Shown: positions 1 to 38,395, counted from the stretch's first letter. The stretch: 64,000 bases of DNA from an uncultured Bacillota bacterium (GCA_963804645.1 CAWDRG010000017.1:512001-576000), one strand, 5' to 3'. Notes: generated by a model from the sequence alone, not told the origin. Translations and numbers: made by a program.

Positions 1-879
1 GTCACGTCCACGGTGTCCGGCTGCGTGCCGGGCCCCGGATCGGCCTTCACGTCGGAGAAGTACTTGAGCGCGTACAGCTTCTTGAAGCTGGCGTTGATCT
101 CGTTCGCGTTGAACACGTCCCCGACCTTGAACGTCAGGTTGCGGAGGACGACGTACTCCTTCGTCTTGTGCAGCCCCACGAACTTGATCGCCTCGATCTT
201 GCCCTCGATGATCGTGACCGACAGCACGCCCTGGTCATCGACCGAGATATCCGAGACGCGCGCGAGCACGTAGCCGCGGTCCTGGTAGATCTTGTTCACC
301 GCCTGCGCGCCCTGACCGCATCGTCACGGTGTTCAGCACCTGCCCCGGTCCGATGCCGATCGCTTTCTCGATGTCGGCGGTGCTCACCACGGTGTTGCCG
401 TTGATCTTCACCGCGGTGACGACGGGATTCTCGGCCACGATGAACACCACCGTGACGCCGTCGGCCGTGGGCTCGAGGCGGACGGCGACGTCGGCGAACA
501 GCCCGAGCCCGAGAATCGACTGCACGTCATTGCGCAGGGTCTCTTCGTTCAGCGGGTCGCCGGGCTTGGTCGCCACCGCGGCGAGCACCGTGGCGGTCGG
601 CACGTGGTCGTTACCGCGCACCTGCACGTCGCTGATCTTCTGCGGCGGCAGCGTCTGCTGCGGCACCCCGGGGACCGGCGTGAACGGAGACGGCCCGGTG
701 GGGGTAGGCGGCGGCGTCTGCGGCTGCCCGGGCTGGGGTGCCTGGCCGGGCTGCGGCGTCGTGATGTTGAACGGCTGCGCCGCGAGCGGACCCGCCCCGT
801 ACCAGGCGAACAGCAGCACCCCGAGCAGGATGCCCGCCGCCGCGCGTACCGGTCCGATCCGTCTGAAGAATGCGCCCAC
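1..879 (-). CDS. bamA: BamA/Omp85-family outer membrane assembly factor, 5' part with POTRA domains (runs off the window; apparent +1 frameshift near 315)
   Basis: GTG at 879 follows a GGAGGT SD. Signal peptide, Pro/Gln-rich linker, then POTRA repeats (ISDVQVRGN...DVQSILGLGLFADV; VTAVKINGNTVVS). The shifted frame continues NKIYQDRGYVLARV...IIEGKIEAIKFVGLHKTKEYVVLR. Confidence 0.85.
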
Positions 880-1059
880 GCTGACCTCCGCGATAGTGCA
901 TGATATGCTGCCGCGCCGCCACCGAGGATCCCTCCCGCGCGCCCCCGTCAAAATGTGCCGGCCGGACGCCCGGCGTCGGGGGGCGAGAGCAGCGTGGCCG
1001 CTTCGCCGGACGCCGGCGCAAGCCACCTGGAGCGCAGCACCACGTCGTCGACGACTCGG

Positions 1060-1489
1060 TCACCGAACGTCCGCGCCGCAGCCGCCCACCGACACCTCGC
1101 GGGGCGGGAACGGCGGGAGCGTCAGCGCGCCGCCCGGGTCCAGCCGGATCACGTCCTCCGGCGCCGGTGCGGCGGATGCGGCCCGCGCCGCCGGCGTTGC
1201 CGCCGGTGCCGTCGCGCCGACGCCCAGGAACGCGGCGTATCCGACGGCGACGATCACGGCCGCAGCCCCGAGCGCCAGCGCGGCAGTCGGAACACGCCGC
1301 GCCCGCGGTGCGGGCGGCTCGGCCGCCAGCTGCATGCCGGCCTCGCGCGCACGGCGGACCTCCGCTTCGGCCAGCATCAGCCGGAGCACGGCCGCGCGGT
1401 GATCGCCGCGGCGGTGGTCACGCCGGGCACAGCGCCAGCCACTCCTCCGCGTGGCGCAGATGATCGAGCAGCGCGTCGGGCCGCCGCAT
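1060..1489 (-). CDS. Small single-pass membrane protein, candidate anti-sigma factor (apparent +1 frameshift near 1433)
   Basis: ATG at 1489 lies 4 nt after the sigma stop. Repairing one base gives MRRPDALLDHLRHAEEWLRCARRDHRRGDHRAAVLRLMLAEAEVRRARE, then a TM helix (AALALGAAAVIVAVGYAAFLGV) and a short Pro/Ala tail. Confidence 0.55.
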
Positions 1490-1493
1490 CGCG

Positions 1494-2151
1494 CTACTCG
1501 GGCACCCGCTGCGCCGAGAGCCCGGGTCCCGCCGGGGCGATCGCCTCTCGGAGCCGCTGGAGCGCGTGCTTCTGGAGCCGGTAGAAGTGGGACAGGCTGA
1601 TGCTGAGGTCCCGCGCGATCCGGCGCGGCTCCTCGGCCCGCAGAAACTGCCCGCGCAGGATGCGCCGTTCGCGCTCGTCCGGCAGGCGGTCGATCGCGGC
1701 CGCGATCTGATGCACGAGCACGCCGTCCTCGACGGACGCCAGCAGGTCGGCCGCCGCGGGATCCGGGAACTGCTCCAGCACGGCGTCTCCGGCGGCGTCA
1801 GCGGCGCCCGCCAGCCGCTCCGATCTCAGCGCGTTCAGGATCCGTCCCCGGATCCGATAGGTCGCGAACGTACTGAATCGCACCCCCCGCGCCGGATCGA
1901 ACCGCTCCACGGCCTGAATCAGCCCCACGGTCCCCTCCTGGATCATATCCATGAGGATCGCCTCGCGCAACCGCAGATGGGTCGCGATCTTGAACACGAG
2001 CGGCTGGTACGCCTCGATCAGGCGCGCCCGGCTGCGGCCGTCGCCCCGGCCTCGATACGCCGCCCAGAGCCGGGCCTCCTCGGCCGGCTTGAGCAGCGAC
2101 ACCGTTATGCAGTTCTCGCAGGTACTCCGCAAACAACGCTCCACGCTCCAT
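1494..2151 (-). CDS. Sigma-70 family RNA polymerase sigma factor (short form; apparent +1 frameshift near 2103)
   Basis: Region 1.2-like FAEYLRELH-VSLLKPAEEARLW is split across two frames. Region 2: DMIQEGTVGLIQAVERFDPARGVRFSTFATYRIRG. Region 4 HTH: LPDERERRIL...IARDLSISLSHFYRLQKHALQRLR. Confidence 0.85.
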
Positions 2152-2220
2152 TTCTACAGTATCCACGCGCGCGGGCCGCGACTCTCCTCGAGCCGCCCCC
2201 GGCGCCGGGACCGGGCGTGC

Positions 2221-5200
2221 CTAAAACGGGATGCGGGCCAGCAGATAGAACACGTTGTCTCCCAAACTGTCCACATTATACGACGCGGACAGCGTGGGAC
2301 TGAGATTATACTGAATCCCGAGCACGGTATACGGCTGCCCGGTCGGGTTGAGGGGGGCGACGGTCCCGAAGCCCGGCCGCGTGTAGGCCGACGACCTCCC
2401 CAGGACCTCCCCGAGCGAGAGATACACGTTCGTCAGGATATACTTCCCGATCTGCACATTCAGCGGGCTCTGCGCATCGTACGAGATCGTCAGCGCGTCC
2501 AGGCCGAACGCCTGCTGCATCGACGACGAGATCGACCCGAACACCACCTGGCTCAGGAGGCCGCCCGGCGAGCTCTGCCCGCCGCTGGTGCCCGCGACCA
2601 GCGCGAGCACTTGGTCTTGGCTCATCGGCGGATCGGAGGTCCAGCTCAGCGTCGGCGTCGGCAGCACGCCGTCGACGTTCAAGAACACGCGCGTCGGGCC
2701 GTAGAGTCCCTGCGCGGTCACGGAGATGTGCGGAAAGAGCCCGGACCCCTCGGAAAACGTCAGGGCGCCCTGCGAGACCGTGTACGGCGTCCCCAGAATG
2801 TTGATCGTGCCGTTGACCGCCTGGATCTGCCCGGTGAGAACCGGCCTGCCGATCGTGCCGCCGATGTGCAGCCCGCCGGTGAGCCGGGCGCGCGCGGGGC
2901 CCTGCACGTAGTTCACGGCGTCGCCGAGCACGACCGAGGTGTCGAGCCGGATCGGCACGTCGCTGAGGGTGCCGGGGCCGGCCGCCTCGGTCACCGCGAC
3001 GGTGCCGTGCGAGAGGTTGATGGTCCCGGCCAGCGTCGGCCGCAGCGCGGGACCCGAGAGGCTGAGCGAGCCGTCGACCCCGCCGGAGTAGAGCCCGGGC
3101 ATCACGACGGTGATGTTCGTGCCGCTCAGGACGAGCGCGACGGTGTCCGGCCGCAGATCCTTCACGGAGACCGTCCCCTGTCCGGTCAGCGTGCCTCCGC
3201 CCATCGTGGCCGAGAGCTGCTGCAGCTCGATCTGCGACTGGGAGAAGTTGATGTTGATGTTGAGGTTCTCCACCGGGGTCGTGAGCGGCCCGATGAGGAA
3301 GCGTCCGCCGTGGGACTGGAGGACGCCCGTCATCTCGGGGTTCGCGGGGGTCCCCCCGATCGTGACGTCGCCGGCGATCGTGCCGCTGGCGTCGCGGATC
3401 GCGGGCGTAAACAGCGTCAAGAACGAGAGGTCGGTGTCGGCCAGCGACAGCCGCAGATCGAGCGGGCCGTTCGGCGTGAGGCCGAATGCGGACGGATCGA
3501 CCGGCAGCGTGCCCTCGAGCGCGAGCTCGTGGGTGCCTTTGTCGATCGTCCCATTTTCTACCGTGACGATGCCGTCCTTGTAGAACGCGAGCACGGCGAT
3601 CTGATCCACCGTGGCGTTGGGGAGCCCGGCGTTGGCCGCCTGGAACGACAGACCCGCGGTGGGGTCGCGGGTCGGCCCGCCGAACTGGACCGTGAAGTTC
3701 AGCGTCCCGGCCAAGACGTCCTTCGGGCCCATGCGAAACAGGGGACGCAGGAGGTTCGCGTCGAGATTCTGACCCGACAGCTCGACACTGCTGGTGCCCT
3801 CGAGCTCGACGCGGCCCTTCGCCGAGATCGAGCCCTGCTGCGGATGCAGCTCGAGGGTCTGGATGTCGACGACGCCGTGCGCGAGGACCAGGTCCGCGGT
3901 GCCGGTCCCGACGGGAATCCCGCTGACCTGGCCGTCCTGCATCGTGATCACCAGATGCGCCGTGGGATCCGCGAGCGCGCCGTCGAGCGCCACCGTGCCG
4001 TCGATCGTCCCGGCGACCGGCACCGGCGGCGCCGCGGACGTTGCGCGGAAGATCGTGGCGAGCTGCCCGTGCTGCACGGTGAAGTTGAGGTCCGCGGTCG
4101 GCTTCGACCCCATCTTGATCACGCCGGTCACGCCATAGCGCTGATCCTGCTGCGTCAGCGAGACCGGCGCCACGGTCAGGGCTTGGGCTCGATAGTCGAT
4201 CGCGCCCGACGCCTGGAAGGCCTGTCCGTTGATCGAGAGCCCGGGCGAGGCGACGGTCGCCTTGAGCTCAGGATCCTTCATCGTGCCCGTCACCTGGCCG
4301 GACAGCGAGACCGTGCCTGCCAGCGCGAGTCCCCACTGCCCGAGGGAGGGAATGTCCGACAGGTGGATCCGGTCGGCCGTGAACGCCAGGTCGACGGCGC
4401 CGCCGAAATCCACCAGGCCGGACGCGTCGAGCCGCGAGTCGTTGACCGCCGCGGAGAACGACTCGATCCGCACCTGCCCGCCGGTTCCGGCGAACTCGAT
4501 GGACGCCGCGTCGATGCGCTGGCCCGAGACCGTCCCCTGCGCGAACGCCACGGTTCCGGACACCGCCGGGTGCGCGAGCGGCCCGGCGACCGCGATGCGC
4601 CCCGCGAGCGTGCCCGAGACGTCGATCCCGGGCACGAGCGCGTGGGCGAGCGGGCCCGCCGGGACTCCCCGGGCCTGCACCGAGACGCCTTCGGCGAACA
4701 GCGGGTGCAGCCCGACCTCCCCGCTCACGTCGTAGGACGCCCCGCCGCGGACCAGGGCCAGCCCCGACGAGCCGATGCGCTGCGGCCCCGCGTCCACGTC
4801 GCCGGTGGCAAGGTCGAACGGCACGAGGCCCAGGCGCCCGTCCCACGCGGTGACCGCGCCGGAGACCACCGGCGCGGTCACCGTGCCCGTGAGCCGGCCT
4901 TCCAGATCGGCCTGCCCGGAGAGTCCGAGCATGGCGTCCTCCGCCTGCGGCGCGCCGAACCATCCCGGGATCTGCTCCAGCGGAACGTCGTAGACCGACA
5001 TCGCAAGATCCATGCCGCCCGCCGGGGTGATCCCGCCGAACCCGTACGCGACGGCGCCGCCGCGGCGCAGAGTGACAAAGTCGAGGGCCAACGCCCCCTG
5101 GTCGTCCCAAAACAGCGCGTGCAGATCATTGAACGACATGCCGCGCGCGGACCCGGCGGGCATCGTCACGGCGCCCAACAGGCGCGCCCGGTCACCGGTG

Positions 5201-6603
5201 CCCACCCCGGCGATGTCGCCCGACACCCGACCGCCGACGTCCGCCGGCACCGCGAGCCCGGTCTCACCCAGGGCCTGCAGATCCACGTCGTCGGCGGTGG
5301 TCGCAAACGCGTACGACCCCGAGGTCCCCGACACCCCGACCAGCCCGCTGCCCGCGACGTGTCCGCCCGCGACTCGCGCGGAGAGGTCGCTCACCGCGAA
5401 CAGACCCCCGCCGTACTGAAACCGGGTCCGCAGGCCCGAGAACGCGGCCGCGTTCACCCGGCCCGCCGCCGCGTCGACGGTCCCGTCCAGGTAGGGCGCG
5501 TCGATCGGTCCCGAGATCCACACGTTGCCGCTGGCCTGTCCCGCGAGCCGGATCCCGCCGCTCGCGAAGAACAGCCGGCGGACCATCCCAAGATCGACGC
5601 GCTGGGACGTGACGACGAGATCAAGCCATGTCTGGGCCCGCGCGGGAAAGTCCACGGTGCCCCGGACCTGGACCGGTTCGCCGTTCACGACCGCCGACAG
5701 GCGCGACGTGCCCGCGCGGTCGTCGCCCAGCACGATGGTGCCGGACAGGCTGCGGACGTTCAGGCGGCCCGGCAGGTACTCGATCGCGCCATCGCGGAGC
5801 CGGATCGTGGCCGAGTAGTCGAGCGTCGTCTCGCCGCCCTCGGGCGTGATGAGCATATGCGCCCGCGCGTCGAACCGCCCGCCGCCCCAGCGGATCTCCT
5901 GCAGGCGGACGAGATAGGCGCCCCAGCGCTTCGCGTCGCCGTCGTTCCAGGTCACGTCGAAATCGAAAATGCCGTCCGCCTCGAGGTACTCGCCCTGCAC
6001 GGCCGCCTGCTCCCCGTCCGTGCTTCGCCCCGAGAGCGCGAACGCGACCTGCCGGCCGGGGCGAAACTCGATCGTGCCGGCGATGCCGGAGAACCGCGTC
6101 GCAAACGGCGCGGACGCCGACTCCCAGCCGTCCGAGAAGCCCACGATCCCGCCCCGGACGACGACGCGGCCGTGCAGCTGCGGTCCAAGCGAGGTCTGGG
6201 TGCGGCTCAGATAGTCCTCGAAGTTCCACGCGCCCGCTGCGTCCCGCGCGACGGCGATCCGCGGGGTCACGAGGTCCACCTCGGCGACACTCTGCGTCAC
6301 GTCGCCGGGGTGGGTCAGCAGCGCACCCAGGTCGAGCCCGATGTGAATCTGATCCGCGGAAAACGCCACGCCCCGGCTGAACCCGCCGGGCTCGGCGATC
6401 ACGAGGTCGCGCAGATCAAAGCCCCGCCAGGGATCCCCGCCGACGCTGCCGAGGGCCACCGGCCGCCCGAGAGCCTGCCCGAGACGCGTGACCAGTTGCT
6501 GCCGGACCACCGCTGAGAGCCATCCGCTTGAGACAAACACCTCCCAGGCGGCGGTCGCGATCAGGACCACCATCGCGGCGGCGGCCAGTAGCCGCCAAGG
6601 CAC
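2221..6603 (-). CDS. tamB: TamB/AsmA-like translocation and assembly module protein (about 1460 aa)
   Basis: N-terminal TM anchor (WRLLAAAAMVVLIATAAWEVF), long Gly-rich beta-taco repeats, DUF490-like C-terminus (SDPPMSQDQVLALV...FGLDAL...QIGKYI). The start codon is approximate. Confidence 0.85.
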   Translation of the reverse strand: MPWRLLAAAAMVVLIATAAWEVFVSSGWLSAVVRQQLVTRLGQALGRPVALGSVGGDPWRGFDLRDLVIAEPGGFSRGVAFSADQIHIGLDLGALLTHPGDVTQSVAEVDLVTPRIAVARDAAGAWNFEDYLSRTQTSLGPQLHGRVVVRGGIVGFSDGWESASAPFATRFSGIAGTIEFRPGRQVAFALSGRSTDGEQAAVQGEYLEADGIFDFDVTWNDGDAKRWGAYLVRLQEIRWGGGRFDARAHMLITPEGGETTLDYSATIRLRDGAIEYLPGRLNVRSLSGTIVLGDDRAGTSRLSAVVNGEPVQVRGTVDFPARAQTWLDLVVTSQRVDLGMVRRLFFASGGIRLAGQASGNVWISGPIDAPYLDGTVDAAAGRVNAAAFSGLRTRFQYGGGLFAVSDLSARVAGGHVAGSGLVGVSGTSGSYAFATTADDVDLQALGETGLAVPADVGGRVSGDIAGVGTGDRARLLGAVTMPAGSARGMSFNDLHALFWDDQGALALDFVTLRRGGAVAYGFGGITPAGGMDLAMSVYDVPLEQIPGWFGAPQAEDAMLGLSGQADLEGRLTGTVTAPVVSGAVTAWDGRLGLVPFDLATGDVDAGPQRIGSSGLALVRGGASYDVSGEVGLHPLFAEGVSVQARGVPAGPLAHALVPGIDVSGTLAGRIAVAGPLAHPAVSGTVAFAQGTVSGQRIDAASIEFAGTGGQVRIESFSAAVNDSRLDASGLVDFGGAVDLAFTADRIHLSDIPSLGQWGLALAGTVSLSGQVTGTMKDPELKATVASPGLSINGQAFQASGAIDYRAQALTVAPVSLTQQDQRYGVTGVIKMGSKPTADLNFTVQHGQLATIFRATSAAPPVPVAGTIDGTVALDGALADPTAHLVITMQDGQVSGIPVGTGTADLVLAHGVVDIQTLELHPQQGSISAKGRVELEGTSSVELSGQNLDANLLRPLFRMGPKDVLAGTLNFTVQFGGPTRDPTAGLSFQAANAGLPNATVDQIAVLAFYKDGIVTVENGTIDKGTHELALEGTLPVDPSAFGLTPNGPLDLRLSLADTDLSFLTLFTPAIRDASGTIAGDVTIGGTPANPEMTGVLQSHGGRFLIGPLTTPVENLNININFSQSQIELQQLSATMGGGTLTGQGTVSVKDLRPDTVALVLSGTNITVVMPGLYSGGVDGSLSLSGPALRPTLAGTINLSHGTVAVTEAAGPGTLSDVPIRLDTSVVLGDAVNYVQGPARARLTGGLHIGGTIGRPVLTGQIQAVNGTINILGTPYTVSQGALTFSEGSGLFPHISVTAQGLYGPTRVFLNVDGVLPTPTLSWTSDPPMSQDQVLALVAGTSGGQSSPGGLLSQVVFGSISSSMQQAFGLDALTISYDAQSPLNVQIGKYILTNVYLSLGEVLGRSSAYTRPGFGTVAPLNPTGQPYTVLGIQYNLSPTLSASYNVDSLGDNVFYLLARIPF

Positions 6604-6647
6604 CGCGCGCGTCCGGGAGGGCCGGGCCGGGCCCGGCGGGGCGCCTG

Positions 6648-8442
6648 TCAGTGCGCGCCGCCCCCGATCCGCAGCAGGATGGGAATACGTCCGTCCAGCA
6701 CCCAGGGCGTCGTCAGCGTCGACGAGATCCGCCCGGCCCCGGGGCCGGTCTGCGCGCCGGGGGGCACGGCGGTCGTCAGGATCTCCGCGACGATGTCGGT
6801 GTGCCGCTCCTGCTGCTCGAACAGGCGGATCGCCTCCGTCAGGCTGCCCGCCACGGGCGGCGTTTGCCCGGCGGCTGGGACGGTGCCGCCGTTCGGCAGC
6901 ACCGTCGTGGTCCCGGCCCGCACCACCAGCAGCGCCGGACCCGGGGGAAGATCGGCCGGGACGGTGACGGTGACGTCGCGGGTCTCGGGCTCGCCGCGGA
7001 ACGGCCGCACGGTGACGCGCACGTGCAGCAGTTCGCCGGGCGCGACGACGCGGGTGTCGACGTCCGCGGCGGTAATCAGCGCGGTCTCCTGGCGGCTGGT
7101 CACATGAATGTCCATCTCCATGTCGGTGGGCAGCACGTCGGTGAAGTCGTTGCTGAAGGCGAGGCGCAGCGCCGCCGGCACTTCCGAGAGCGCCTGCCCG
7201 GCGATGTCGCTCGCGCTGTAGAATCGGTTGTCGCGCGTGATCGCGTCCGGCAGACCGCGGCCCCGCACGGTCATCGTCACCTGCGGCCGTGCCGGCGCCG
7301 GAGCGGTTCAGCGCGCGCTCGATCGCCTCTCGGGCCCCGAGCGTGACGAGCGCCGGCGCCAGCGTCTTGTCGGGCAGCACTTGATACACGAAGCGGCGGG
7401 ACGCGCCCGAGTCGTCGTCGGTCACCCGGACCACGACGCCGAACAGCCGCGGCAGCACCCCGATCGTCCCGCCGACCGCCGCCGGACGGTCCTCCGTAAT
7501 GACGCCGACGACCGCGCCGGCCGCGCCGACTTTGATGTTCTGGGACAGCCCGCGCACCGTCTGTAAAATGGTCGCGTTCGTCAGCGCGTACGTCGCCGGC
7601 CCCAAGTTCATGAAGGGATGGCCGAAGGCCACCAGCCGGTTGCCGTCGCGGTACGTCAGCGTGCCGATCGCATACGCGCCGATGTCCCCGCGCAGCAGCG
7701 CGACCCCGATCGCGCTCCCCGGCTCCAGCGGCATCGACGGCGGCAGCGCGGCCGACGACCCGCCGGCCATCGGCTCGACCCCCATCGGCTCCAGCACTTG
7801 TGCGAGAGACGCCCGCGCGGCGTCGTCGAGCCCCGACAGAAACAGCGGCGTCGCCGCCGGCACCGCGACAAGCGTGCCGGGCGCCGTCCGCGCGACGGCG
7901 CGCCGGGACGCCGCGACCGTAATGTGTCGGATCACCTGGCCGCCGACGCGGAGCGGCGCGATCGCCACCGTCCGGGTGGACGGGACCGCCGCCGTTCGCG
8001 GCAGGTCGCGCAGCATGTACTCAATCGGCGTAAAGAGCCCGATGAACGGATCGGACGCCTGGAACGAGTAGCTGAACGCCCCCGCCAGCCGCCCGCCGAG
8101 ATAAATCGGGCTTCCGCTCATCCCGGCGGCCAGTCCCCCGGCGCTCTGCAGCGCCGGCCCGGACGCACGGAACAGCACGAGATCCCCGGCCGGTCCCGCG
8201 TTGCGCAGGATGCCGAGCACGCGCACCTGAAACTCCGAGAGGCGGGTGCCGACCAGCACCGTCCGACCCGTGCCGGTCATGCCGACGGTGATCGCCGACA
8301 CCGGCAGCACCGCGGGCCCCTGTGCGGAGCGCGCCGGAACGGCCGGGGCAGTCGTGCCGAGCACGACCACCGCCGCGATGGCCGCCCAGCGGGCCCGACC
8401 GACGTGCCGGTGCATCCATCGACCCGCCATCCGACCCGCCAT
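6648..8442 (-). CDS. SpoIVB/peptidase S55 domain protein, copy 1 (apparent +1 frameshift near 7287)
   Basis: Signal peptide, GGLAAGMSGSPIY, TPIEYML, AIGTLTYRDGNRLVAFGHPF. The C-terminal part is in ORF 6648-7280 and is collinear with copy 2. Confidence 0.8.
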
Positions 8443-8447
8443 CGCCG

Positions 8448-10250
8448 CTACCTCACCGTCATCGGGATTTGGAACTTGCCGAGCACCACCCACTGGGTCG
8501 GCACCGTCGTGCCCGCCGGCGTCTCGATGTCGGGGTTCGCGTTGCTCCCGACCGCGGCGAGCACCGCCTCGGGCACCAGCTCGACGAGCACCTCAGTATT
8601 CTTGCCCGCGTCCTCGAATTGTGCGACCGCTTCCTCAAGCGACGCGGTCCCGGTCGGCGTTCCCTCCTGCCCGACGAGGGCCTGGAACACCTCGGCCGGA
8701 GACGCCCCGGTGCCGTTGTTCAACGTGCCCGCGGTGCCCACCAACAGGAACGCGGGGCCGGTCGGAAAGGTGCGGGGCACGGTAAACTGGACGATGCGGC
8801 TGAGGTCCTCAGACTCCCCGTACGGCCGCACCGCGACCGCGACCCGCATCGTGTCCCCGGGCCGCACCTCGCGCGTGCTGGGCCGCGCCGAGACGAGCAG
8901 GGCGGTGTCAGCGCGGCTCGTCACCGTGATGGTGATGGTCATGTCGATCGGGTCGATGCTCTGGAAAAAGTTGCCGAACAAGAGCTGCGTGGCGCCCGGC
9001 ACGTCGAGCGCGGAGGCGGTCGCGATATCGCCGATATCGTACGCGAGATCCTCGCGCACGATCGCGTCGGGGACGTCGCGGGCGCGCAGCGAGATGCTCA
9101 CCTGCGCGGACCCTCCCGCGACCTGATCCATCGCCCGCTGGATCAGGCTCAGCGCCGTGGTCGGCACGAACGCTTCGGCCAGGTCCGGCCGGCGCACGAC
9201 CTGCGCCCCGTACGACTGGGTCTTGCCGGTATCGGCATTCCGCACCTGCACCCGCACGCCGAACGTGCGGGGGAACTGCCCCACGGTCCCGGCGATCCCG
9301 ACCCCGCGGTCCTGCGAGATCATCCCCACGAGGCCGCCGATGCTGCCTTCCTTAAAAGGTTCGTTCAGCGAGCGGACGATCGTATCGATGTACGCGGTGG
9401 TCAGCATCATCGACGCCGAGCCCGCGTTCAGCATCGGGTGCCCGAACGCCAGAATCTGGTCCCCCCGGCGGTAGGTGACGGTGCCGATGCCCCCCATCTC
9501 GGCGTCCCCCCGCACCAGCTCCACGCCGAGCGAACTCCCGGGCTGCAGCGGCGGCGCCGCAAACGACGCCGACCCGGCGTACTGCTGGCGCGGGCTGACG
9601 TTGAACCGGCGGAGCGCCCGCGACAGAACCTGAAACGCCCCGGGCGTGACGCCGGACGCGAACAGCGACATCGCAGCCGGTGCGAACGCGGCGAGACCCG
9701 GCAGCGGGTGGGCGTTGTAGACCGCCGCGTCCGCGGCGGAGTTCATCACGAGCACGCGGGAGATCCGCCGCCCATCCGGCGCCGCGATCGGCCGGTCGGC
9801 CTGATACATCCCGGAGGCCGGCGACGCGCCCACGCCCGCGGGGGCCCCGAGGACTTTCAGCATCGCCTCGATCGGCGTCGCGAGGCTCAGGTCCGCGTCC
9901 GGCCCGGGAAACTCGTACCCGTAGCTGAGCGCGCCCAGCATGCGCCCGCCGATGTAGATCGGGCTCCCGCTCATCCCCGCCGCGTTGCCGCCGGCTTCCC
10001 GAATCGCGGGACCGCCGGCGCGGAACAGGACGAGGTCGGTCGGACCGCCGTGAAGAATGCCGAGGATCTTGACGTCGAACCGCTGGATCGTGGTACCGTG
10101 CAGTACCGTCAGGCCGTAGCCGGTCATGCCCGCCCGCACCGCGCTGATCGGCATCGTCGGCGGACCCGCCGGGCCCGCGGCCAGACCTTCGGACGCGGCG
10201 GCCCCGAGGCAGATCGCCAGGATGACCGCTATCGCTCCCACCCTCCGCAC
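8448..10250 (-). CDS. SpoIVB/peptidase S55 domain protein, copy 2
   Basis: GTG at 10250 after a GAGGGGG SD. Signal peptide, GMTGYGLTV, AGMSGSPIY, TPIEAML, GIGTVTY...LAFGHP. Confidence 0.85.
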   Translation of the reverse strand: MRRVGAIAVILAICLGAAASEGLAAGPAGPPTMPISAVRAGMTGYGLTVLHGTTIQRFDVKILGILHGGPTDLVLFRAGGPAIREAGGNAAGMSGSPIYIGGRMLGALSYGYEFPGPDADLSLATPIEAMLKVLGAPAGVGASPASGMYQADRPIAAPDGRRISRVLVMNSAADAAVYNAHPLPGLAAFAPAAMSLFASGVTPGAFQVLSRALRRFNVSPRQQYAGSASFAAPPLQPGSSLGVELVRGDAEMGGIGTVTYRRGDQILAFGHPMLNAGSASMMLTTAYIDTIVRSLNEPFKEGSIGGLVGMISQDRGVGIAGTVGQFPRTFGVRVQVRNADTGKTQSYGAQVVRRPDLAEAFVPTTALSLIQRAMDQVAGGSAQVSISLRARDVPDAIVREDLAYDIGDIATASALDVPGATQLLFGNFFQSIDPIDMTITITVTSRADTALLVSARPSTREVRPGDTMRVAVAVRPYGESEDLSRIVQFTVPRTFPTGPAFLLVGTAGTLNNGTGASPAEVFQALVGQEGTPTGTASLEEAVAQFEDAGKNTEVLVELVPEAVLAAVGSNANPDIETPAGTTVPTQWVVLGKFQIPMTVR

Positions 10251-10409
10251 GCTCGTCCCCCCTCGTGGCCTCATCGGTGTGACCCCGGCGCCGTCGCGCG
10301 ACGACCGTGTGCTCTCGGCGCCTTGGGCACCGCGGACATCCCCCGAAAACGGCACGAGGGGCACGCGCGCATGCCCCTCCTCACCGGCTGCTCCGGTCCC
10401 CGAGGACCG

Positions 10410-10727
10410 TCAGTGCGGCGTAATCGCGACGACCGGATCTCCGATATTGACGAAATCTCCCACCCCGACCATGACCTGGGACACCTGCCCGCCGACCGGC
10501 GCCACCGCGGCCGGGACCGCGCTGCCGGTGGTCGTCCGCACGAACACGAGCGGATCGCCCTGCTTCACCGTCTGGCCGTTCGTCGCGAGGCGAAGCGGGA
10601 GCACCTGACCGGAGATCGCCGAGCGGACCACCACGGCGGTCTGGGCGCTCCCCGTCAGCGGCAGCGCCGACACGAGCAACACCGCGGCGAGCACGATCGG
10701 GCCCAATGCCTGCCACCGACGCGTCAA
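10410..10727 (-). CDS. Exported biotinyl/lipoyl-fold (barrel-sandwich hybrid) protein
   Basis: Signal peptide followed by VRSAISGQV...GQTVKQGDPLV...APVGGQVSQVMVGVGDFVNIGDPVV. There is no MKM lysine. Confidence 0.7.
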   Translation of the reverse strand: MTRRWQALGPIVLAAVLLVSALPLTGSAQTAVVVRSAISGQVLPLRLATNGQTVKQGDPLVFVRTTTGSAVPAAVAPVGGQVSQVMVGVGDFVNIGDPVVAITPH

Positions 10728-10753
10728 ATCGCACCACCCACCTTATCAAGCAA

Positions 10754-10783
10754 ATTATAGGCACCGCCGCCTCATACTGTCAA
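10754..10783 (-). promoter_or_regulatory. Sigma-70 promoter of the OM-biogenesis operon
   Basis: Minus strand TTGACA-18 bp-TATAAT; both hexamers match the consensus exactly in a roughly 70% GC background. Confidence 0.75.
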
Positions 10784-11943
10784 ACGGCGAACTCCGATGG
10801 AAAGTTCTTGGTAAACCCGAAGTAGCGGCGCAGCGACGCGACGATCCGCTCGGCCGCGCGCCCGTCGCCGTACGGATTCCGCGCCTCGGCCATGCGCCGG
10901 TAGCTGACGTCGTCGGACAGCAGCAGTGAGGCGGCCGCGACGATCGCCGCTCGATCGGTGCCGACGAGTTTGGAGGTGCCGGCGTCCACCCCCTCGGGCC
11001 GCTCGGTCGTCTCGCGCAGCACGAGCACCGGCCGCCCGAGCGACGGCGCCTCCTCCTGGATGCCCCCGGAGTCGGTGAGGATCAGCGCGGCCGCCTTCAT
11101 GCACTGGACGAGCGAGGCGTAGTCCAGCGGCGCGACGAGGTGCGCCCGCGGGTGCCCGCCGAGGATCTCGTGCGCCGGGGCGGTCACCACGGGATTCGGG
11201 TGCACGGGAAAGATGAGCTCGAGGTCGGGCACCCGGTCGAGCAGCTCGCGCACCGCGAGAAAGATGCGGCGCTGAGGCTCGCCCCAGTTCTCACGGCGAT
11301 GCGTCGTCAGCAGAATCCGTCGGCCGGCCCCCGCGAGCAGCGCGGCCACGCGCGGATCCACGAGGCCGGCGTCCCGGCCGGCGATCTCAAGCAGGGCGTC
11401 GATCACCGTGTTGCCCGTCACCACGATGCGGTCGCGCGGCACGCCCTCGCGCTCGAGGTGCGCGCGCGCCGTCGCGGTCGGCGCGAAGTGCAGATCGGCG
11501 AGGACGGTGGTCATCCGCCGGTACATCTCCTCGGGGAACGGCTGATATTTGTCATCCGTCCGCAGCCCGGCTTCGACGTGCGCCACCGGCGTCTTGCGGT
11601 AGAACGCGGCGAGCGCGCCGACGAACGACGGCGCCGCGTCGCCCTGCACCAGGACGATCGCGGGATCGACGCGGGCGAGCGTCTCTTCGAGCCCGCGGAG
11701 GGTGCGGACGGTCACGTCCGCCAGGGTCTGCCGCTCGGTCATGATGTTGAGGTCCCAGTCGGGCTCGATCCCGAACAGCTGCAGCACCTGATCCAGCATC
11801 TCGCGGTGCTGCGCGGTCACGACGACCACGGGGCGGAGTTCCTCGGGATGCGCGCGCAGCGCGCGCACCACCGGCGCCATCTTCACCGCGTCGGGCCGCG
11901 TGCCGAACACCACCATCACGCGGCGCGGCGCGGCGGCGTTCAT
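10780..11943 (-). CDS. wecB: UDP-N-acetylglucosamine 2-epimerase (non-hydrolysing)
   Basis: Motifs VFGTRPDAVKMAP, AHVEAGLRT, PFPEE, TGNTVIDAL, TDSGGIQEEAPS, TERPEG, NPYGDG. Confidence 0.95.
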   Translation of the reverse strand: MNAAAPRRVMVVFGTRPDAVKMAPVVRALRAHPEELRPVVVVTAQHREMLDQVLQLFGIEPDWDLNIMTERQTLADVTVRTLRGLEETLARVDPAIVLVQGDAAPSFVGALAAFYRKTPVAHVEAGLRTDDKYQPFPEEMYRRMTTVLADLHFAPTATARAHLEREGVPRDRIVVTGNTVIDALLEIAGRDAGLVDPRVAALLAGAGRRILLTTHRRENWGEPQRRIFLAVRELLDRVPDLELIFPVHPNPVVTAPAHEILGGHPRAHLVAPLDYASLVQCMKAAALILTDSGGIQEEAPSLGRPVLVLRETTERPEGVDAGTSKLVGTDRAAIVAAASLLLSDDVSYRRMAEARNPYGDGRAAERIVASLRRYFGFTKNFPSEFAV

Positions 11944-13058
11944 CGCGGCACCTCGCCGGCCCCGCCGGACGGCCGCCGGCCAAGCAGCAGCCCCAGCCGG
12001 CGCGCGCCGACCACGAGGAGCGCCAGCAGCACGGCGAGCAGCGCCATCAGATCGAAGCGGTGGATGCCGCTGAGGACGAGCGCCCCCGCGCCGAGGACCG
12101 CCGTCACGAGGTAGAGGACCCCGACCGTCTGCCGCTGGCTCAGCCCGCGGCGCAGCAGCTGGTGGTGGAGGTGGCCGGTGTCGGCCTGAAAGATCGGCTG
12201 TCCGCTCCGCCAGCGCCGCGTGATCGCAAGCGCGGTGTCGGCGACCGGCACGCCGAGCGCCGCGAGCGGGATGAGCAGGGACAGCGCGGTATAGCTCTTG
12301 TACGTCCCGAGGACCGAGAGCCCCCCGAGCAGATAGCCGAGCAGCATCGAGCCCGTGTCCCCGAGAAAGATCCGCGCGGGGTTGAAGTTGTACGGCAGAA
12401 ATCCGAGCGTCGCGCCCACGAGCGCCGCGGTGAGGATCGCGGTGGCGACGTCTCCCCGCAGGAAGGACGCGATCAAGAGCGTGCCGCCCGCGATGGTGGC
12501 GATGCCAGCGGCCAACCCGTCGACGCCGTCGATCAGGTTCATCACGTTGCACAGCGCGACCAGCCAGACCACGGTGACGATCGCGCCGAGCGGGCCCACG
12601 AAGAACATGCCGCCGAGGGGATTGGTGAGCACGTCCATGCCCACCCCGAACGGCAGGAGCACGGCCGCCGCGAGCACCTGCCCCGCCAGCTTCACGAGCG
12701 GCGAGACGCCGTGGGCGTCGTCCACGGCGCCGAGCAGCGTGATCAGCGTGGCGCCGAGCAGCAGACCGAGGATCGGGTGATCAAGCGCCGGTGTGTACGG
12801 AATGGTCACGACCACCTGGTGGGACCGCACGGCGACGTTGATCGGGCGCCCCACCGGCAGGGCCACGACGACCGCCGCGACAAACGCGAGGTACACCGCG
12901 ACGCCGCCGAGCCGCGGCACCGGCCGCGTGTGGATGTGCCGGCCGCCCGGACGCGCCACCACGCCGAACTGGGTCGCGATCCAGGCGACGACCGGGGTGC
13001 ACAGGTACGCGACGAGCAGGCCGATCGCCGCGGCCACGAGGAGTGGCGAGATGGTCAT
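11940..13058 (-). CDS. Undecaprenyl-phosphate GlcNAc-1-phosphate transferase (GT4, WecA/TagO family)
   Basis: Multi-pass membrane protein with PRLGG, GAVDD, NLIDGVDGLAAG, YNFNPARIFLGDTGS, DTGHLHH. Confidence 0.9.
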   Translation of the reverse strand: MTISPLLVAAAIGLLVAYLCTPVVAWIATQFGVVARPGGRHIHTRPVPRLGGVAVYLAFVAAVVVALPVGRPINVAVRSHQVVVTIPYTPALDHPILGLLLGATLITLLGAVDDAHGVSPLVKLAGQVLAAAVLLPFGVGMDVLTNPLGGMFFVGPLGAIVTVVWLVALCNVMNLIDGVDGLAAGIATIAGGTLLIASFLRGDVATAILTAALVGATLGFLPYNFNPARIFLGDTGSMLLGYLLGGLSVLGTYKSYTALSLLIPLAALGVPVADTALAITRRWRSGQPIFQADTGHLHHQLLRRGLSQRQTVGVLYLVTAVLGAGALVLSGIHRFDLMALLAVLLALLVVGARRLGLLLGRRPSGGAGEVPR

Positions 13059-13082
13059 GAGCCGCCCGGCCGCCGGGCCGGC

Positions 13083-14063
13083 CTACTGCCCCTCGTTGAC
13101 CGGCTGCATCACGCGGGGGGCGCTGAACAGCTCGCTCACGGACTGCTCCCCATGGATGCGCTGAATCGCCTCGCCGAGCAGGCTGGCGACCGAGATCACC
13201 GTGAGCTTGGGCGTCCGCTTCTCGGGGGGGACGGGGATGCTGTCCGTCACGACGAGCTGCTCGATCGGCGACCGCAGGACCCGCGCCGTCGCGGGCGGCG
13301 ACAGGATCGCGTGCGTGCAGCAGGCGTAGACGCCGAGCGCCCCCTTCTTCATCAGTGCCTCGGCGGCACTCGTCAGCGTCCCGCCGGTATCGATGATGTC
13401 GTCGACGAGGATCGCGGTCTTCCGGTAGACCTTGCCGATGACGTGGACGATCTCGGCGACCTGATTCGGACGGTCCCGCCGCTTGTCGATAATCGCAAGC
13501 GGCGCGTGGATGTACTCCGCGAATTCGCGCGCCCGCTTGACGCCCCCGATGTCGGGGGACACGACGACGGCGTTCTCCAGCCCGAGCGAGAGGAAGTGGT
13601 CGCCGAGGATCATCCGGCCCGGCAGATGGTCGAGCGGAATGTCGAAGAAACCCCACAGCTGCCCGGTGTGGAGATCGAGCGTGAGGATCCGGTCGGCCCC
13701 GGCGGTCGTCAGCAGATTGGCGACCAGCTTGGCGGTGATCGGCTCCCGCGGCTTGATCTTCCGGTCCTGGCGGGCGTAGCCGAAATACGGAATCACGGCG
13801 GTGACGCGCGCCGCGCTGGCGCGGCGGAGCGCGTCGATGATGATCAGCAACTCCATCAGCGTCTCGTTCGCCGGCGGACACGTGGGCTGCACGGCAAACG
13901 CGTCGAGGCCGCGCACGCTTTCGTCGATCCGCACCCCGATCTCACCGTCGGAGAACCGGAACACGTGCATCGCGCCGAGGGGCAGGTGCAGATACTCGGC
14001 GATGCCCCGCGCGAGGGTGGGGTTGCCGGTCCCGCTGAAGACCCGAACGCCCGCCCCCGCCAT
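13083..14063 (-). CDS. prs: Ribose-phosphate pyrophosphokinase
   Basis: Motifs FSDGE, IPYFGYARQDRK, DLH, VSPDIGGVKRA, VDDIIDTGGT. Confidence 0.97.
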   Translation of the reverse strand: MAGAGVRVFSGTGNPTLARGIAEYLHLPLGAMHVFRFSDGEIGVRIDESVRGLDAFAVQPTCPPANETLMELLIIIDALRRASAARVTAVIPYFGYARQDRKIKPREPITAKLVANLLTTAGADRILTLDLHTGQLWGFFDIPLDHLPGRMILGDHFLSLGLENAVVVSPDIGGVKRAREFAEYIHAPLAIIDKRRDRPNQVAEIVHVIGKVYRKTAILVDDIIDTGGTLTSAAEALMKKGALGVYACCTHAILSPPATARVLRSPIEQLVVTDSIPVPPEKRTPKLTVISVASLLGEAIQRIHGEQSVSELFSAPRVMQPVNEGQ

Positions 14064-14076
14064 CGCTCTCTCCCGC

Positions 14077-15435
14077 CTAGCCTTCGCGGCTCAGCCGCCG
14101 GATCACTCGTGCCGGGACCCCGACCGCGACGCCGCGCGCCGGCACGCTCTTCGTGACCACGGACCCGGCGCCGGTGGCGGCCCCCGGTCCGATCCGGACC
14201 GGGGCGACCAGCATCGTGTCGCTCCCGATGTACGCGCCGCGCCCGATCTCGGTGCGGTGCTTGCGGCGGTCGAGGCCGTAGTTGCACGTGATCGTCCCCG
14301 CCCCGATGTTCACGTCCGACCCGATCACCGCGTCGCCGAGATAACTCTTGTGGTGCACCTTCGTCCGATCGCCGACGCGCACCTGCTTCATCTCCGCATA
14401 GTTTCCGATCTGGACGTCGCGTCCCACGATGGTGCCGGTCCGGAGATGCGCGTAGGGGCCGACGGTCGTCCCCGCGCCGAGGCGGCACTCTTCGAGCGTG
14501 GAGTCGCGCACCCGAACACCGCGGCCCAGCACCGCGCTGTCAATCCTGGCGCCGGGGCCGATCTCACATCCGGCGCCGATCACGGTGCGCCCCGTGAGGA
14601 TCGTCTGGGGATGCAGCACTGTATCGCGGCCGACGCGCACCTCGGCGTCCACGAACGTCGACGCGGGATCGACGACGGTCACGCCGCCCTGCATCAGGCG
14701 CCGGAGGATCCGCCCGCGCAGCGCCGCCTCGGCTTCCGCCAGTTCCTCGCGGGTGTTGATGCCGAGCATCTCCGCCGGGTCGCTCACGGGCACCGTCGTG
14801 ACCTCGCGGCCCGTGACGGCGAGCACGTTCATAGCGTCGGTCAAATAGTACTCACCCTGGCGATTGTTGGGACGAACCCGCGCGAGGGCCCGCCGGATCT
14901 CCGCCACGCGCATGACGTACATGCCGGCGTTGACCTCGCGGATCGCGGCCTCCTCGGGCGTCGCGTCCCGCTCCTCGACGATCCCGACGAAGCGGCCGGC
15001 CGGATCCCGCACGATCCGCCCGAATCGGTGGGTGTCCTCGACCACCCGGGTCGCGAGCGCCGCCCCGCCCGTCCGTCCGAGCGCACGGCGCAGTGCGCGC
15101 AGCGTAGCGGGGGACACAAACGGCATATCGCCGTGGACCACATAGGTCAGCCCGACACGACGGAGGTGGGGCAGTGCCTGCGCGAGCGCGTGGCCGGTCC
15201 CGCGGGCCGGATGCTGCACGACATAGTCGGCGCCGGCGCCGATCGCGTTCCGGATCGCCGCGCGGCCGTCGCGGCCGACGACAATCAGCACGCGGCCGAC
15301 CCCCGCCCGGCGCAGCGCCGCGACGACGTGCGCCAGCATCGGACGGCCGCAGAGGGGATGCAGAACCTTCGGCAGCGCCGAGTTCATCCGGGTGCCGCTG
15401 CCTGCGGCCAGAATCACAGCGGCCGGCTGTTCCAC
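14077..15435 (-). CDS. glmU: Bifunctional GlcNAc-1-P uridyltransferase/acetyltransferase
   Basis: VILAAGSGTRM...PKVLH, GTGHA, EYYLTD, hexapeptide repeats, NIGAGTITCNY. GTG start follows GGAGG. Confidence 0.95.
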   Translation of the reverse strand: MEQPAAVILAAGSGTRMNSALPKVLHPLCGRPMLAHVVAALRRAGVGRVLIVVGRDGRAAIRNAIGAGADYVVQHPARGTGHALAQALPHLRRVGLTYVVHGDMPFVSPATLRALRRALGRTGGAALATRVVEDTHRFGRIVRDPAGRFVGIVEERDATPEEAAIREVNAGMYVMRVAEIRRALARVRPNNRQGEYYLTDAMNVLAVTGREVTTVPVSDPAEMLGINTREELAEAEAALRGRILRRLMQGGVTVVDPASTFVDAEVRVGRDTVLHPQTILTGRTVIGAGCEIGPGARIDSAVLGRGVRVRDSTLEECRLGAGTTVGPYAHLRTGTIVGRDVQIGNYAEMKQVRVGDRTKVHHKSYLGDAVIGSDVNIGAGTITCNYGLDRRKHRTEIGRGAYIGSDTMLVAPVRIGPGAATGAGSVVTKSVPARGVAVGVPARVIRRLSREG

Positions 15436-15535
15436 GGGCTGCCTCCGAAGACATACAGGTGGGATGCCCCAACGGGTTCGCGGCCAGCGGGGGCCGTCCC
15501 TGCGCCGGCGGATCTGCGCCCGGCCGACGTGGCGC

Positions 15536-16195
15536 TCATGCGCCGGCGAGCTCGGCGAACGCCCGCACCGGAAACGACGCGCCGCGCGCGACGCGCGGGG
15601 GCACCGCGTAAAATCGGAACCCGTCGGACGGAAGGGCATGTAGGTTGCACAGATTCTCGACGATCAGCACGCCGGCGGCGAGCAGGCGCGTGTGGGCGGG
15701 GCGGCTCGGATCCCCGACGTCGTCCACGTTCCAGGTGTCGATGCCCACCAGCGCCGGCGCCGCGTGGACGAGCCGCTCCACGGCGCGCTGAGAAAGGTGC
15801 GGGCACGGGCGCCAGTACTCGCCGTGTCCCCAGTGCGCGTCCCACCCGGTGCGGACGAGCACCGCCGCGCCGCGCATGCGCGCATCCGCGTCGACATCCA
15901 GCGCCGGCCCGTCCGCGGCGCTCGGGTCCAGGACCACGCCGCGCACCCCCGCGACCTGCTCGAGCGGGATGTGGCTGAGATCCGCCGCGGTGGGGAACCG
16001 ATGGAACGGGCTGTCCACATACGTGCCGATGTTGCACGGCATCTCGACCATCCCGAGATAGAACTCGGCCCGACCATCGTACTGGACCCGCGACGCGTGA
16101 TGATCCAGCACCGCGCCGATCCTCGGTCGGGGCAGCCCGGGAAACACCTCCATGCCGTCCGCGAGCGCATGGCTGAGGTCTACGAATCGGACCAC
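15536..16195 (-). CDS. Cyclase / kynurenine-formamidase family protein
   Basis: Motifs DLSH, NIGTYVDSPFH, RTGW, VGIDTWNVD, AH-LL-AGVLIVENL, GASFPVRAFA. Confidence 0.85.
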   Translation of the reverse strand: MVRFVDLSHALADGMEVFPGLPRPRIGAVLDHHASRVQYDGRAEFYLGMVEMPCNIGTYVDSPFHRFPTAADLSHIPLEQVAGVRGVVLDPSAADGPALDVDADARMRGAAVLVRTGWDAHWGHGEYWRPCPHLSQRAVERLVHAAPALVGIDTWNVDDVGDPSRPAHTRLLAAGVLIVENLCNLHALPSDGFRFYAVPPRVARGASFPVRAFAELAGA

Positions 16196-16264: not shown

Positions 16265-16338
16265 TGGCTGGGGGGCCAGGATTCGAACCTGGACACTCAC
16301 ATCCAAAGTGTGATGGCCTACCGTTAGCCGACCCCCCA
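16265..16338 (-). tRNA. tRNA-Gln(TTG)
   Basis: 74-nt cloverleaf: TGGGGGG acceptor stem, anticodon arm TCACA-CTTTGGA-TGTGA, T-arm CCAGG-TTCGAAT-CCTGG, encoded 3' CCA. Confidence 0.95.
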
Positions 16339-17386: not shown

Positions 17387-17426
17387 GAGCCCCCCAGCCC
17401 ACCCCGCGGGTCGCGCGGATCGCGGG

Positions 17427-38258: not shown

Positions 38259-38267
38259 ATCTCTCCC

Positions 38268-38376
38268 TCTTATCTACCGGAATTGGATCTTCCGCGGGAG
38301 TTAGCACCACACCAGGTGGGAGCCTGGTAGGCTGCCGGGTGTCATCGGGCCCGTCCCTCAACCACTCTTGATAAGG
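38268..38376 (-). ncRNA. SAM-I (S-box) riboswitch
   Basis: CTTATCAAGAGTGGTTGAGGGACGGGCCCGATGACACCCGGCAGCC...GGTGCTAACTCC...AGATAAG matches the SAM-I P1, kink-turn and P3 pattern. Confidence 0.93.
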
Positions 38377-38395
38377 AAGCTATGAAATTGATGTT

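Follow-up and report, generated by a model that had tools for sequence, protein, structure and literature searches.

A candidate sigma/anti-sigma pair encoded between tamB and bamA in the outer membrane biogenesis cluster of an uncultured Sysuimicrobiota bacterium

Background

In the ideas on the origin and the loss of the bacterial outer membrane (OM), a central place is held by the diderm Terrabacteria, among them the Negativicutes, Halanaerobiales and Sysuimicrobiota. The present analysis concerns a block of OM assembly genes in the genome of an uncultured soil bacterium of the Sysuimicrobiota (CSP1-3), contained in a stretch of 64,000 nucleotides (nt) (GCA_963804645.1 CAWDRG010000017.1:512001-576000; hereafter referred to as the window), with particular reference to a sigma factor and a small single-pass membrane protein, considered here as a candidate sigma/anti-sigma pair, which are encoded between tamB and bamA. 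An earlier note on this stretch, made from the sequence alone, had read the block as a candidate proteolytic envelope-sensing cascade, in which two SpoIVB-type (S55) proteases would cleave the small membrane protein and release the sigma factor.

Results and discussion

Organisation of the locus

Coordinates follow the numbering of the window, in which the block occupies 1..10783, and minus-strand features are read 5' to 3'. The G+C content is 68-75% per 1-kb window across the first 16 kb, and open frames are therefore abundant on both strands. Third-position G+C singles out the true genes, every one of which in 1..10783 lies on the minus strand, in the order lipoyl-like exported protein, S55-like protease a, S55-like protease b, TamB, sigma factor, single-pass SonB-like protein and BamA (Table 1). 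All the parts claimed for the block in the earlier note are present and co-directional, and the promoter is, as stated there, perfect. In all the relatives compared, TamB comes after the S55-like gene and before the sigma gene.

The bamA gene continues beyond the window start, with an Omp85 barrel (E 8.1e-31) at 17001-18323 of the continuation L016 (G000:C17:494001-513000). The 18 kb past the window start carry three Skp/OmpH genes, lpxD, lpxC, fabZ, lpxA, lpxB, lptC, lptA, lptB and lptF/G, and also encode a family 2 glycosyltransferase (GT2), a DUF3084 protein and an SLH-domain protein; one of the Skp/OmpH paralogues 3' of bamA is a 327-amino-acid (aa) open frame. The region is the 5' end of an OM biogenesis cluster common to the diderm Terrabacteria, and a conserved OM locus of this kind in both Negativicutes and Halanaerobiales is described in the available part of PMC5007114.

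The block promoter is preceded immediately by wecB, which ends at 10783. A promoter scan of 12.6 kb gave two promoter-like sites against 0.5 expected. The perfect hexamer pair is kept in 16 of the 16 distinct wecB-lipoyl intergenic regions of the family to which the window belongs (f1), while 33 loci of other families have best sites with one to six mismatches, often including a good TATAAT. The promoter is thus conserved, strong and of the housekeeping type, and the block is therefore not obviously controlled by its own sigma factor. Terminator-like sites were no commoner than expected by chance (4 against 3.6 expected).

Table 1. Features of the block and its promoter, in window coordinates
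Feature	Position	Strand	Remarks
SigA/sigma-70-type promoter, TTGACA-18 nt-TATAAT	10754..10783	-	12/12 matches; -35 hexamer overlaps the wecB stop codon
Lipoyl/barrel-sandwich-like exported protein, 105 aa	10410..10727	-	Pfam Biotin_lipoyl E 2.1e-5, HlyD_3 E 1.6e-6; hydrophobic N-terminus
S55-like protease a, 638-aa open frame	8448..10364	-	PF05580 33.8 bits; exported; probable start codon an ATG near 10274
S55-like protease b, paralogue of a	6648 to about 8442 or 8493	-	PF05580 29.9 bits; in two frames in the assembly
TamB, AsmA-like, N-terminal membrane anchor	2221..6640, start approximate	-	PF04357 E 1.1e-43; DUF748 and AsmA matches
Sigma-70-family sigma factor, about 220 aa	1494..2166	-	Sigma70_r2 PF04542 E 1.9e-20; Sigma70_r4 PF04545 E 2e-4
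SonB-family candidate anti-sigma factor, about 180 aa	about 948..1489	-	frames read past two extra bases
BamA 5' part (POTRA)	1..890	-	POTRA E 5.4e-16; gene continues beyond the window start

The sigma factor

The sigma factor has a conserved region-1.2-like N-terminus followed by regions 2 and 4. Among the NCBIfam models, only that of the superfamily scores above its cut-off (TIGR02937, 89.7 bits; cut-off 42.9), followed, each below cut-off, by RpoS, SigB/F/G, RpoH, WhiG and FliA. The closest PDB matches are sigma factors of groups 1-3, with 6pfj/6pfv, labelled 'RNA polymerase sigma factor', at the top. By its best matches (group 2/3) the protein appears group-3-like and set apart from the extracytoplasmic function (ECF)/RpoE type. 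It is single-copy in 86 of the 94 genomes of the phylum and in 81 of the 91 Negativicutes genomes sampled.

When 185,579 species genomes were scanned with an alignment, 347 stretches proved to encode a relative of the sigma factor, and synteny was counted in the best 80 loci, which include Sporomusa, Pelosinus, Selenomonadaceae and Veillonellaceae. TamB lies 5' of sigma in 78 of these loci, the other two beginning at the sigma gene or 115 nt before it, and BamA lies 3' of sigma in 69, the other 11 ending less than 1.5 kb after it. The similar gene order that the earlier note had mentioned for the Negativicutes is thus conserved there, and the linkage reaches a Halobacteroidaceae metagenome-assembled genome (MAG) in addition.

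The SonB-like protein

A single open frame is always found between sigma and bamA and has the same plan throughout (alignment A3, 35 sequences). The N-terminal stretch of about 50 residues is conserved, with the motif LAEAE and invariant A14, W17, L18, A21, L35, L39, A42 and E43. Next come an Arg/Lys-rich segment and, near residue 70, a membrane helix, beyond which the tail is rich in Pro and Ala. A C-terminal helix motif (A3 columns 330-367) occurs in most Sysuimicrobiota members and in Negativicutes and is absent from family f1, whose SonB-like proteins end in a short Pro-rich motif. None of the 35 members matches any Pfam family meaningfully (best E 0.011), and neither an N-terminal signal peptide nor a lipobox was seen in the 35 sequences. 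The A3 profile joins the window protein to Negativicutes proteins with E-values down to 1e-56.

By gene order and description, the single-pass protein belongs to the family of SonB, which PMC13018214 describes from Acetonema longum. According to the available part of that article (Nat Commun 2026), sonB-bamA-sonA-skp1 are syntenic, co-expressed and up-regulated in germination, the presence of SonA/SonB does not track the ability to sporulate, and SonB is missing in two Negativicutes species; V. parvula is reported to lack it. In Sporomusa, tamB is followed by sigma, by the gene of the SonB-like protein (208 aa), by bamA and then by the genes for a 421-aa protein and OmpH/skp; at the window locus, no SonA-like gene was found 3' of bamA in the 18-kb continuation.

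The sigma-sonB spacers of 16 Negativicutes-type loci contain a housekeeping-like site resembling TTCACA-17/18-TATAAT, with a CCAGAATCTGG palindrome upstream, mainly kept in Sporomusa and Pelosinus. This palindrome upstream of sonB (L108 about 8690-8745; alignment A5) may be an operator. The start of sonB in Sporomusa/Pelosinus is probably a few codons downstream of the one first assumed.

Evidence for a sigma/anti-sigma pair

In the 94 genomes of the phylum, both genes are present in 83, sigma alone in three, the SonB-like gene alone in none and neither in eight. The sigma match is itself truncated in the three sigma-only genomes, that of G076 starting at contig base 1. Both genes are likewise present in 81 and absent from 10 of the 91 sampled Negativicutes genomes, none of which carries one alone, and the two are adjacent in 82 of the 83 Sysuimicrobiota and 79 of the 81 Negativicutes genomes that have them. 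Joint absences occur in at least two Sysuimicrobiota families; all three genomes of genus g13 (L034, L035 and L130; 94-99% complete) lack both genes, with TamB abutting BamA. A profile search of 79 further loci also never found the one without the other. The suggestion that the small protein is the partner of the sigma factor is thus supported by co-occurrence and joint absence in both the phyla searched.

The association of the sigma factor with the N-terminal helices of the small protein, as envisaged in the earlier note, is also predicted by modelling of the complex, which gave a score of 0.66 (0.66-0.67 over the three runs), the best of three controls reaching 0.01. This mark is attained by 116 of 157 solved complexes and by 2 of 215 mismatched pairs. 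At least 76% of the contacts were common to the runs, and the predicted local distance difference test (pLDDT) value of the SonB-like protein was at least 73. In the predicted interface, SonB-like residues 13-49, which include all the invariant N-terminal residues, meet sigma residues 4-14, 36-47 and 68-77. Sigma regions 2.1 and 2.2 form the main core-RNA-polymerase surface, and anti-sigma factors act by covering the same surface.

Several considerations weigh against this pairing. The 83 and 81 joint occurrences overstate the number of separate events because genomes of the same clade are not independent, and the tallies for the phylum include two unpublished genomes (G034 and G067), the former being also part of the reading-frame comparison of the relatives. 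The calibration of the complex score is only rough because custom alignments were used, and the predicted binding is a measure of model confidence. No known anti-sigma domain of the zf-HC2, RseA_N or RsgI_N type was found in the 35 SonB-like members, and the sigma-sonB spacers of the 16 Negativicutes-type loci yielded neither a distinct alternative-sigma motif nor a regulon. The available part of PMC13018214, in addition, names SonB as a putative OM lipoprotein and predicts a transmembrane helix for it. On balance, the computational evidence makes it probable that the sigma factor and the SonB-like protein are a sigma/anti-sigma pair.

The S55-like proteases: domain and catalytic residues

Both the proteins exceed the PF05580 cut-off of 25 bits (Table 1), the matches covering only profile positions 126-210 of 210 (126-192 in S55-like a). 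Two pieces of S55-like b are 44% and 41% identical to S55-like a. Against the SpoIVB equivalog model TIGR02860 (cut-off 305.25) the two score 18.9 and 30.1 bits, and judging by these comparisons the S55-like proteins are not SpoIVB orthologues. Their description in the earlier note as SpoIVB-type proteases therefore holds for the PF05580 match of both, and does not extend to the equivalog score, which is far under the cut-off, or to the order of the half-domains, which is reversed. PF05580 was detected in B. subtilis only among 14 control genomes.

In alignment A4, D287 and H309 never vary and the motif GMSGSP (S132) hardly does, and the motif, the Asp and the His are all invariant across 10 divergent members of the family. 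The half with Ser (about 132) precedes that with Asp/His (287/309), which is the reverse of SpoIVB. The Asp...His stretch, about 150 residues after the Ser, resembles the one that precedes GMSGSP in the true SpoIVB of Sporomusa, a likeness of the His half which, taken alone, is not significant (E = 19). The A4 profile matches the SpoIVB structure PDB 9lnf across the C-terminal barrel with E 1.5e-10.

An AlphaFold2 (AF2) model of S55-like a (pLDDT 83.3, predicted template modelling score (pTM) 0.80) was used in fold searches, in which residues 67-180 resemble the Ser-bearing C-terminal barrel of Deg/HtrA/DegS/SpoIVB with modest Z values of 5.3-6.8. A Foldseek search of the whole model against the PDB gave nothing at E<=0.001, and 9lnf alone stood out, over 106 columns. 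No PDZ family was detected by Pfam in the S55-like proteins; in the model an alpha/beta insert (185-260) lies between the halves. Compared with SpoIVB there are about 330 additional residues at the C-terminus, among them those of a beta-sandwich. The family-wide conservation of Ser, Asp and His makes it probable that these are active proteases of the envelope, with their halves in reverse order.

The S55-like family and its forms

The S55-like family comprises 3138 representative clusters at E<=1e-30 and at least 597 stretches in the species genomes. The lineages among the matches listed, by record title, include Negativicutes, Halanaerobium, Halobacteroidaceae, Atribacterota, Riflebacteria, Planctomycetota, Armatimonadota, Trueperaceae, Dormibacterota, Acidobacteriota, Spirochaetota, Poribacteria and others. 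A homologue search with A4 found 1855 proteins at E<=1e-5, the best 120 of which are all close relatives. As leads from the ESM Atlas, S55-like clusters are commonest in Acidobacteriota, Atribacterota and Verrucomicrobiota, and SonB-like clusters in Bacillota. On sequence evidence, the S55-like proteins would thus make up an uncharacterised family of very great size, whose members are exported proteases with the half-domains reversed, and no paper describing a permuted S55 family was found.

Long S55-like forms of 1200-1500 aa carry beta-propeller and Ig-like domains, and another form ends in three SLH domains (P0174, P0188, P0198, P0222, P0221). Genus g13 also carries an unlinked second copy of the S55-like gene, which forms a 947-aa open frame (G033:C1:165878-167545), and in an uncultured Brachyspira sp. 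three S55-like genes lie in tandem (L197, 8881-14206).

Genomic neighbours of the S55-like genes

The order in Sporomusa is lipoyl-like, S55-like, mlaE, mlaF, mlaD, tolC, tamB, sigma, sonB and bamA. The window lipoyl-like protein shares 39% identity (E 1e-12) with the 106-aa protein whose gene is directly 5' of the Sporomusa S55-like gene, and 15 of 79 loci from other lineages have a lipoyl-like gene upstream of the S55-like one. Since order and likeness span both phyla, the lipoyl-like/S55-like couple has long been part of the cluster.

Of the 91 Negativicutes genomes, 89 carry the S55-like gene, including nine of the 10 that lack the sigma/SonB-like pair, and in 53 of the 81 that have the pair it lies on the same strand within 20 kb upstream. 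It is also kept in the Sysuimicrobiota genera g13 and g30, which are devoid of the pair. The 79 wider S55-like loci were scored with profiles trained on the two phyla. TamB, sigma and SonB-like are neighbours in seven of these loci; TamB and BamA, with the pair absent between them, in four, among them Halanaerobium saccharolyticum; BamA directly in three; mla genes, with the flank ending before the bamA region, in 21; and TamB, after which the flank ends, in three. The neighbours in the other 41 match none of the profiles, and the lack of tamB, bamA or mla there may be a miss because of the training on two phyla.

Thus, the S55-like genes keep steady company with tamB, mla and bamA and not with the sigma pair, and since the S55-like gene is kept where the pair has been lost, a role as trigger protease is unsupported. 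The link between the S55 proteases and a sigma switch, central to the earlier note, is not borne out, the proteases being kept in lineages without the pair and belonging to a family that is far wider. A general role of the S55-like proteases, in OM assembly or quality control, is most likely.

Proposed explanation and its alternatives

The favoured account, to which we give somewhat better than even confidence as a whole, regards the block as the head of an OM cluster with a sigma/anti-sigma pair, the S55-like proteases as having a general OM role and the frameshifts described below as assembly errors. The housekeeping-type promoter would drive the block from the lipoyl-like gene through BamA, with the Skp, Lpx and Lpt genes following. 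The cytoplasmic N-terminal hairpin of the SonB-like protein is predicted to cover sigma regions 1.2, 2.1 and 2.2, which form the core-RNA-polymerase surface; the sigma factor would thereby be held at the inner membrane by its partner, the periplasmic tail of which would be positioned for an envelope signal. The Arg/Lys-rich stretches ahead of the membrane helix speak for this topology. If this is true, the sigma factor and its dedicated membrane partner, which hold their place between tamB and bamA in at least two phyla, would be a testable built-in circuit for OM control, and the reading of SonB as an OM lipoprotein would change.

In a full proteolytic cascade, one or both of the S55-like proteins would act as sensors and site-1 proteases that cut the periplasmic tail of the SonB-like protein when TamB/BamA-dependent OM assembly stalls, an M50 protease would finish the cleavage, and the freed sigma would raise the expression of bamA and OM genes, in an independently evolved counterpart of DegS-RseA-sigmaE. 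We regard this as unlikely, notwithstanding the co-directional block of S55-like, sigma, SonB-like and bamA genes in Sysuimicrobiota and seven of the 79 other loci, the upstream S55-like genes of the 53 Negativicutes genomes, the conserved catalytic residues and the DegS/HtrA-like fold of the Ser-bearing barrel (Z 5.3-6.8). The four M50-protease loci of the source genome say little because M50 proteases are found in all 14 control genomes. The S55-like gene persists without the pair in nine of the 10 Negativicutes genomes that lack it, in g13 and g30 and in the four S55-like/TamB/BamA loci including that of H. saccharolyticum; the family is vastly wider than the pair, 41 of the 79 loci have no OM genes nearby (with the reservation that the profiles may miss distant ones), and duplication of the S55-like gene does not follow the loss of the SonB-like C-terminal motif.

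The other two alternatives concern the SonB-like protein and the targets of the sigma factor. A true sigma/anti-sigma module could control non-envelope targets such as germination, motility or surface structures and owe its position between tamB and bamA to inheritance only. The alignment of the sigma-sonB spacers, in which no regulon was found, is in keeping with this, as are the best matches of the sigma factor to WhiG/FliA, RpoS and sporulation-type sigma factors, the flagellar genes that flank the Sporomusa cluster and the up-regulation of sonB in germination stated in the available text of PMC13018214. We give it a low probability since the position between tamB and bamA is kept in Sysuimicrobiota, Negativicutes and the Halobacteroidaceae MAG, and since the same text has the presence of SonA/SonB independent of sporulation ability. 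Still less probable, in our estimate, is the published reading, by which SonB would be an OM lipoprotein or an accessory factor of the machinery for beta-barrel assembly (BAM), functionally unconnected to the upstream sigma factor. It draws on the synteny, co-expression, germination response and putative lipoprotein nature with a transmembrane helix given in the available portion of PMC13018214. Against it stands that the sigma factor goes unmentioned there, the word 'sigma' occurring 0 times. The hydrophobic helix near residue 70, after a conserved soluble N-terminus without the signal peptide or lipobox looked for in the 35 sequences, the strict co-occurrence of the SonB-like gene with the sigma gene, directly 3' of which it lies, and a complex prediction that passes its controls argue instead for the favoured pairing of the two proteins.

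Comparison with known systems

The RpoE/RseA/DegS/RseP envelope-stress system of E. coli, which is linked to OM protein assembly, holds its sigma factor by an anti-sigma factor that spans the inner membrane once and reaches into the periplasm with its tail. The window similarly encodes a sigma factor, a predicted single-pass partner, a link to OM assembly and a periplasmic serine protease gene nearby. It differs in that the sigma is group-3-like by its best matches, the partner has neither an RseA nor any other Pfam domain, the protease is S55-like and not tied to the pair whereas DegS is an S1C protease with a PDZ domain, and the genes lie inside a tamB-bamA operon. The circuit would thus act like RpoE/RseA and yet be no member of that system. 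The idea of a sigmaE-pathway analogue put forward in the earlier note survives with respect to the sigma factor, its membrane partner and their conserved linkage, and falls short with respect to the protease and to the sigma, which by its best matches is not of the RpoE type.

Non-ECF sigma factors with partners are also known: SigI is controlled by the membrane anti-sigma factor RsgI, and the group-3 sigma factors FliA and WhiG have the soluble partners FlgM and RsiG. The window shares with these systems a dedicated partner that would control a non-ECF sigma, and differs in the genomic setting and in the lack of sequence likeness, by Pfam, of the SonB-like protein.

SpoIVB of Bacillus subtilis (MEROPS S55, PF05580, PDB 9lnf), which acts at the sigma-K checkpoint, has a homologous Ser-bearing barrel with GMSG(S/A)P and an Asp...His stretch that is alike at the motif level. 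The window proteins differ by the reversed halves and the roughly 330 additional C-terminal residues, and Sporomusa encodes a true SpoIVB alongside its S55-like protein. Vpar_0521 of Veillonella parvula is described, in the available part of PMC5491611, as a SpoIVB-domain protein of unassigned function in the OM proteome, kept in the OM cluster of diderm Firmicutes; by that description it has a C-terminal DUF1090, which was not seen in the window S55-like proteins. With regard to SonB/SonA of A. longum, the position directly upstream of bamA is the same and the sonB-bamA-sonA-skp order is reproduced in Sporomusa; the account in PMC13018214, so far as available, presents SonB as an OM lipoprotein with sigma unmentioned, whereas the window protein is read here as a candidate inner-membrane anti-sigma factor. 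No paper tying the sigma factor to SonB or to this locus was found, and the supplements of PMC13018214 and PMC5007114 may list the genes. The OM, lipopolysaccharide (LPS), sporulation and sigma factors are unmentioned in PMC11604079, which deals with the Sysuimicrobiota.

Single-base insertions in the assembly

Five intragenic single-base insertions were identified, in S55-like b (about 7283), sigma (about 2102-2105), the SonB-like gene (about 1430-1433 and 1079) and BamA (315), and a sixth lies at 10749/50, downstream of the -10 hexamer of the block promoter. The same genes are intact in the relatives compared, each in one frame, and in the window each gene retains its coding signature beyond the break. 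The SonB-like protein at first seemed to be of 109 aa because of the insertions. A 2090-aa frame, in which TamB would be fused to S55-like b, arises because the frameshifted region is stop-free in GC-rich DNA, and was rejected since the relatives have separate genes. A coding-frame scan flagged 287 frameshift candidates in the 5.3-Mb genome, or 5.4 per 100 kb, but not a single one in 173 kb of the relatives' loci, and gene calls throughout the source assembly are expected to be broken by frameshifts.

As a short-read check, contigs of four peat-metagenome runs (X1, X2, X4 and X5) from two studies were compared with window positions 1-11000. Run contigs without one base were found at 315, 1079, 1430/1433, 2102/2105, 7283/7284 and 10749/10750, and never with an additional base. 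All four runs fully support the deleted form at 7283/4, as do X1 and X5 at 315, where support from X2 and X4 is partial; the four runs are not fully independent because the best-covering one may be the source sample. Two sites speak against a simple assembly error: at 1430/33 the deleted form accounts for 4.5 of 27.9 depth in X1, 2/2 in X2 and 3.95 of 3.95 in X5, X4 being uncovered, and at 2102/05 it occurs in X1 only. Since the short-read contigs and all the relatives are without the extra bases, the frameshifts are nevertheless very probably assembly errors. That they are genuine and that the organism is losing its OM genes is scarcely credible, even though five breaks fall within one block of the assembly and the form of the window is retained in part of the contig depth at 1430/33 and 2102/05, because the candidates are spread genome-wide, the six differences are all additions in the window with no losses, and the genes are intact in all the relatives, with the coding signature kept past the breaks. 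Further frameshift candidates elsewhere in the window (-) lie at about 37341, 46110, 48546, 49893, 50106, 59403 and 61851.

Other features of the window

Directly upstream of the OM block, 15639..10783 (-) encodes GlmU, ribose-phosphate pyrophosphokinase, a family 4 glycosyltransferase (GT4) and WecB. A tRNA-Gln(ttg) gene lies upstream of the block at 16265-16338 (-), and an S-adenosylmethionine (SAM) riboswitch (RF00162, 77.8 bits) at 38267-38377 (-).

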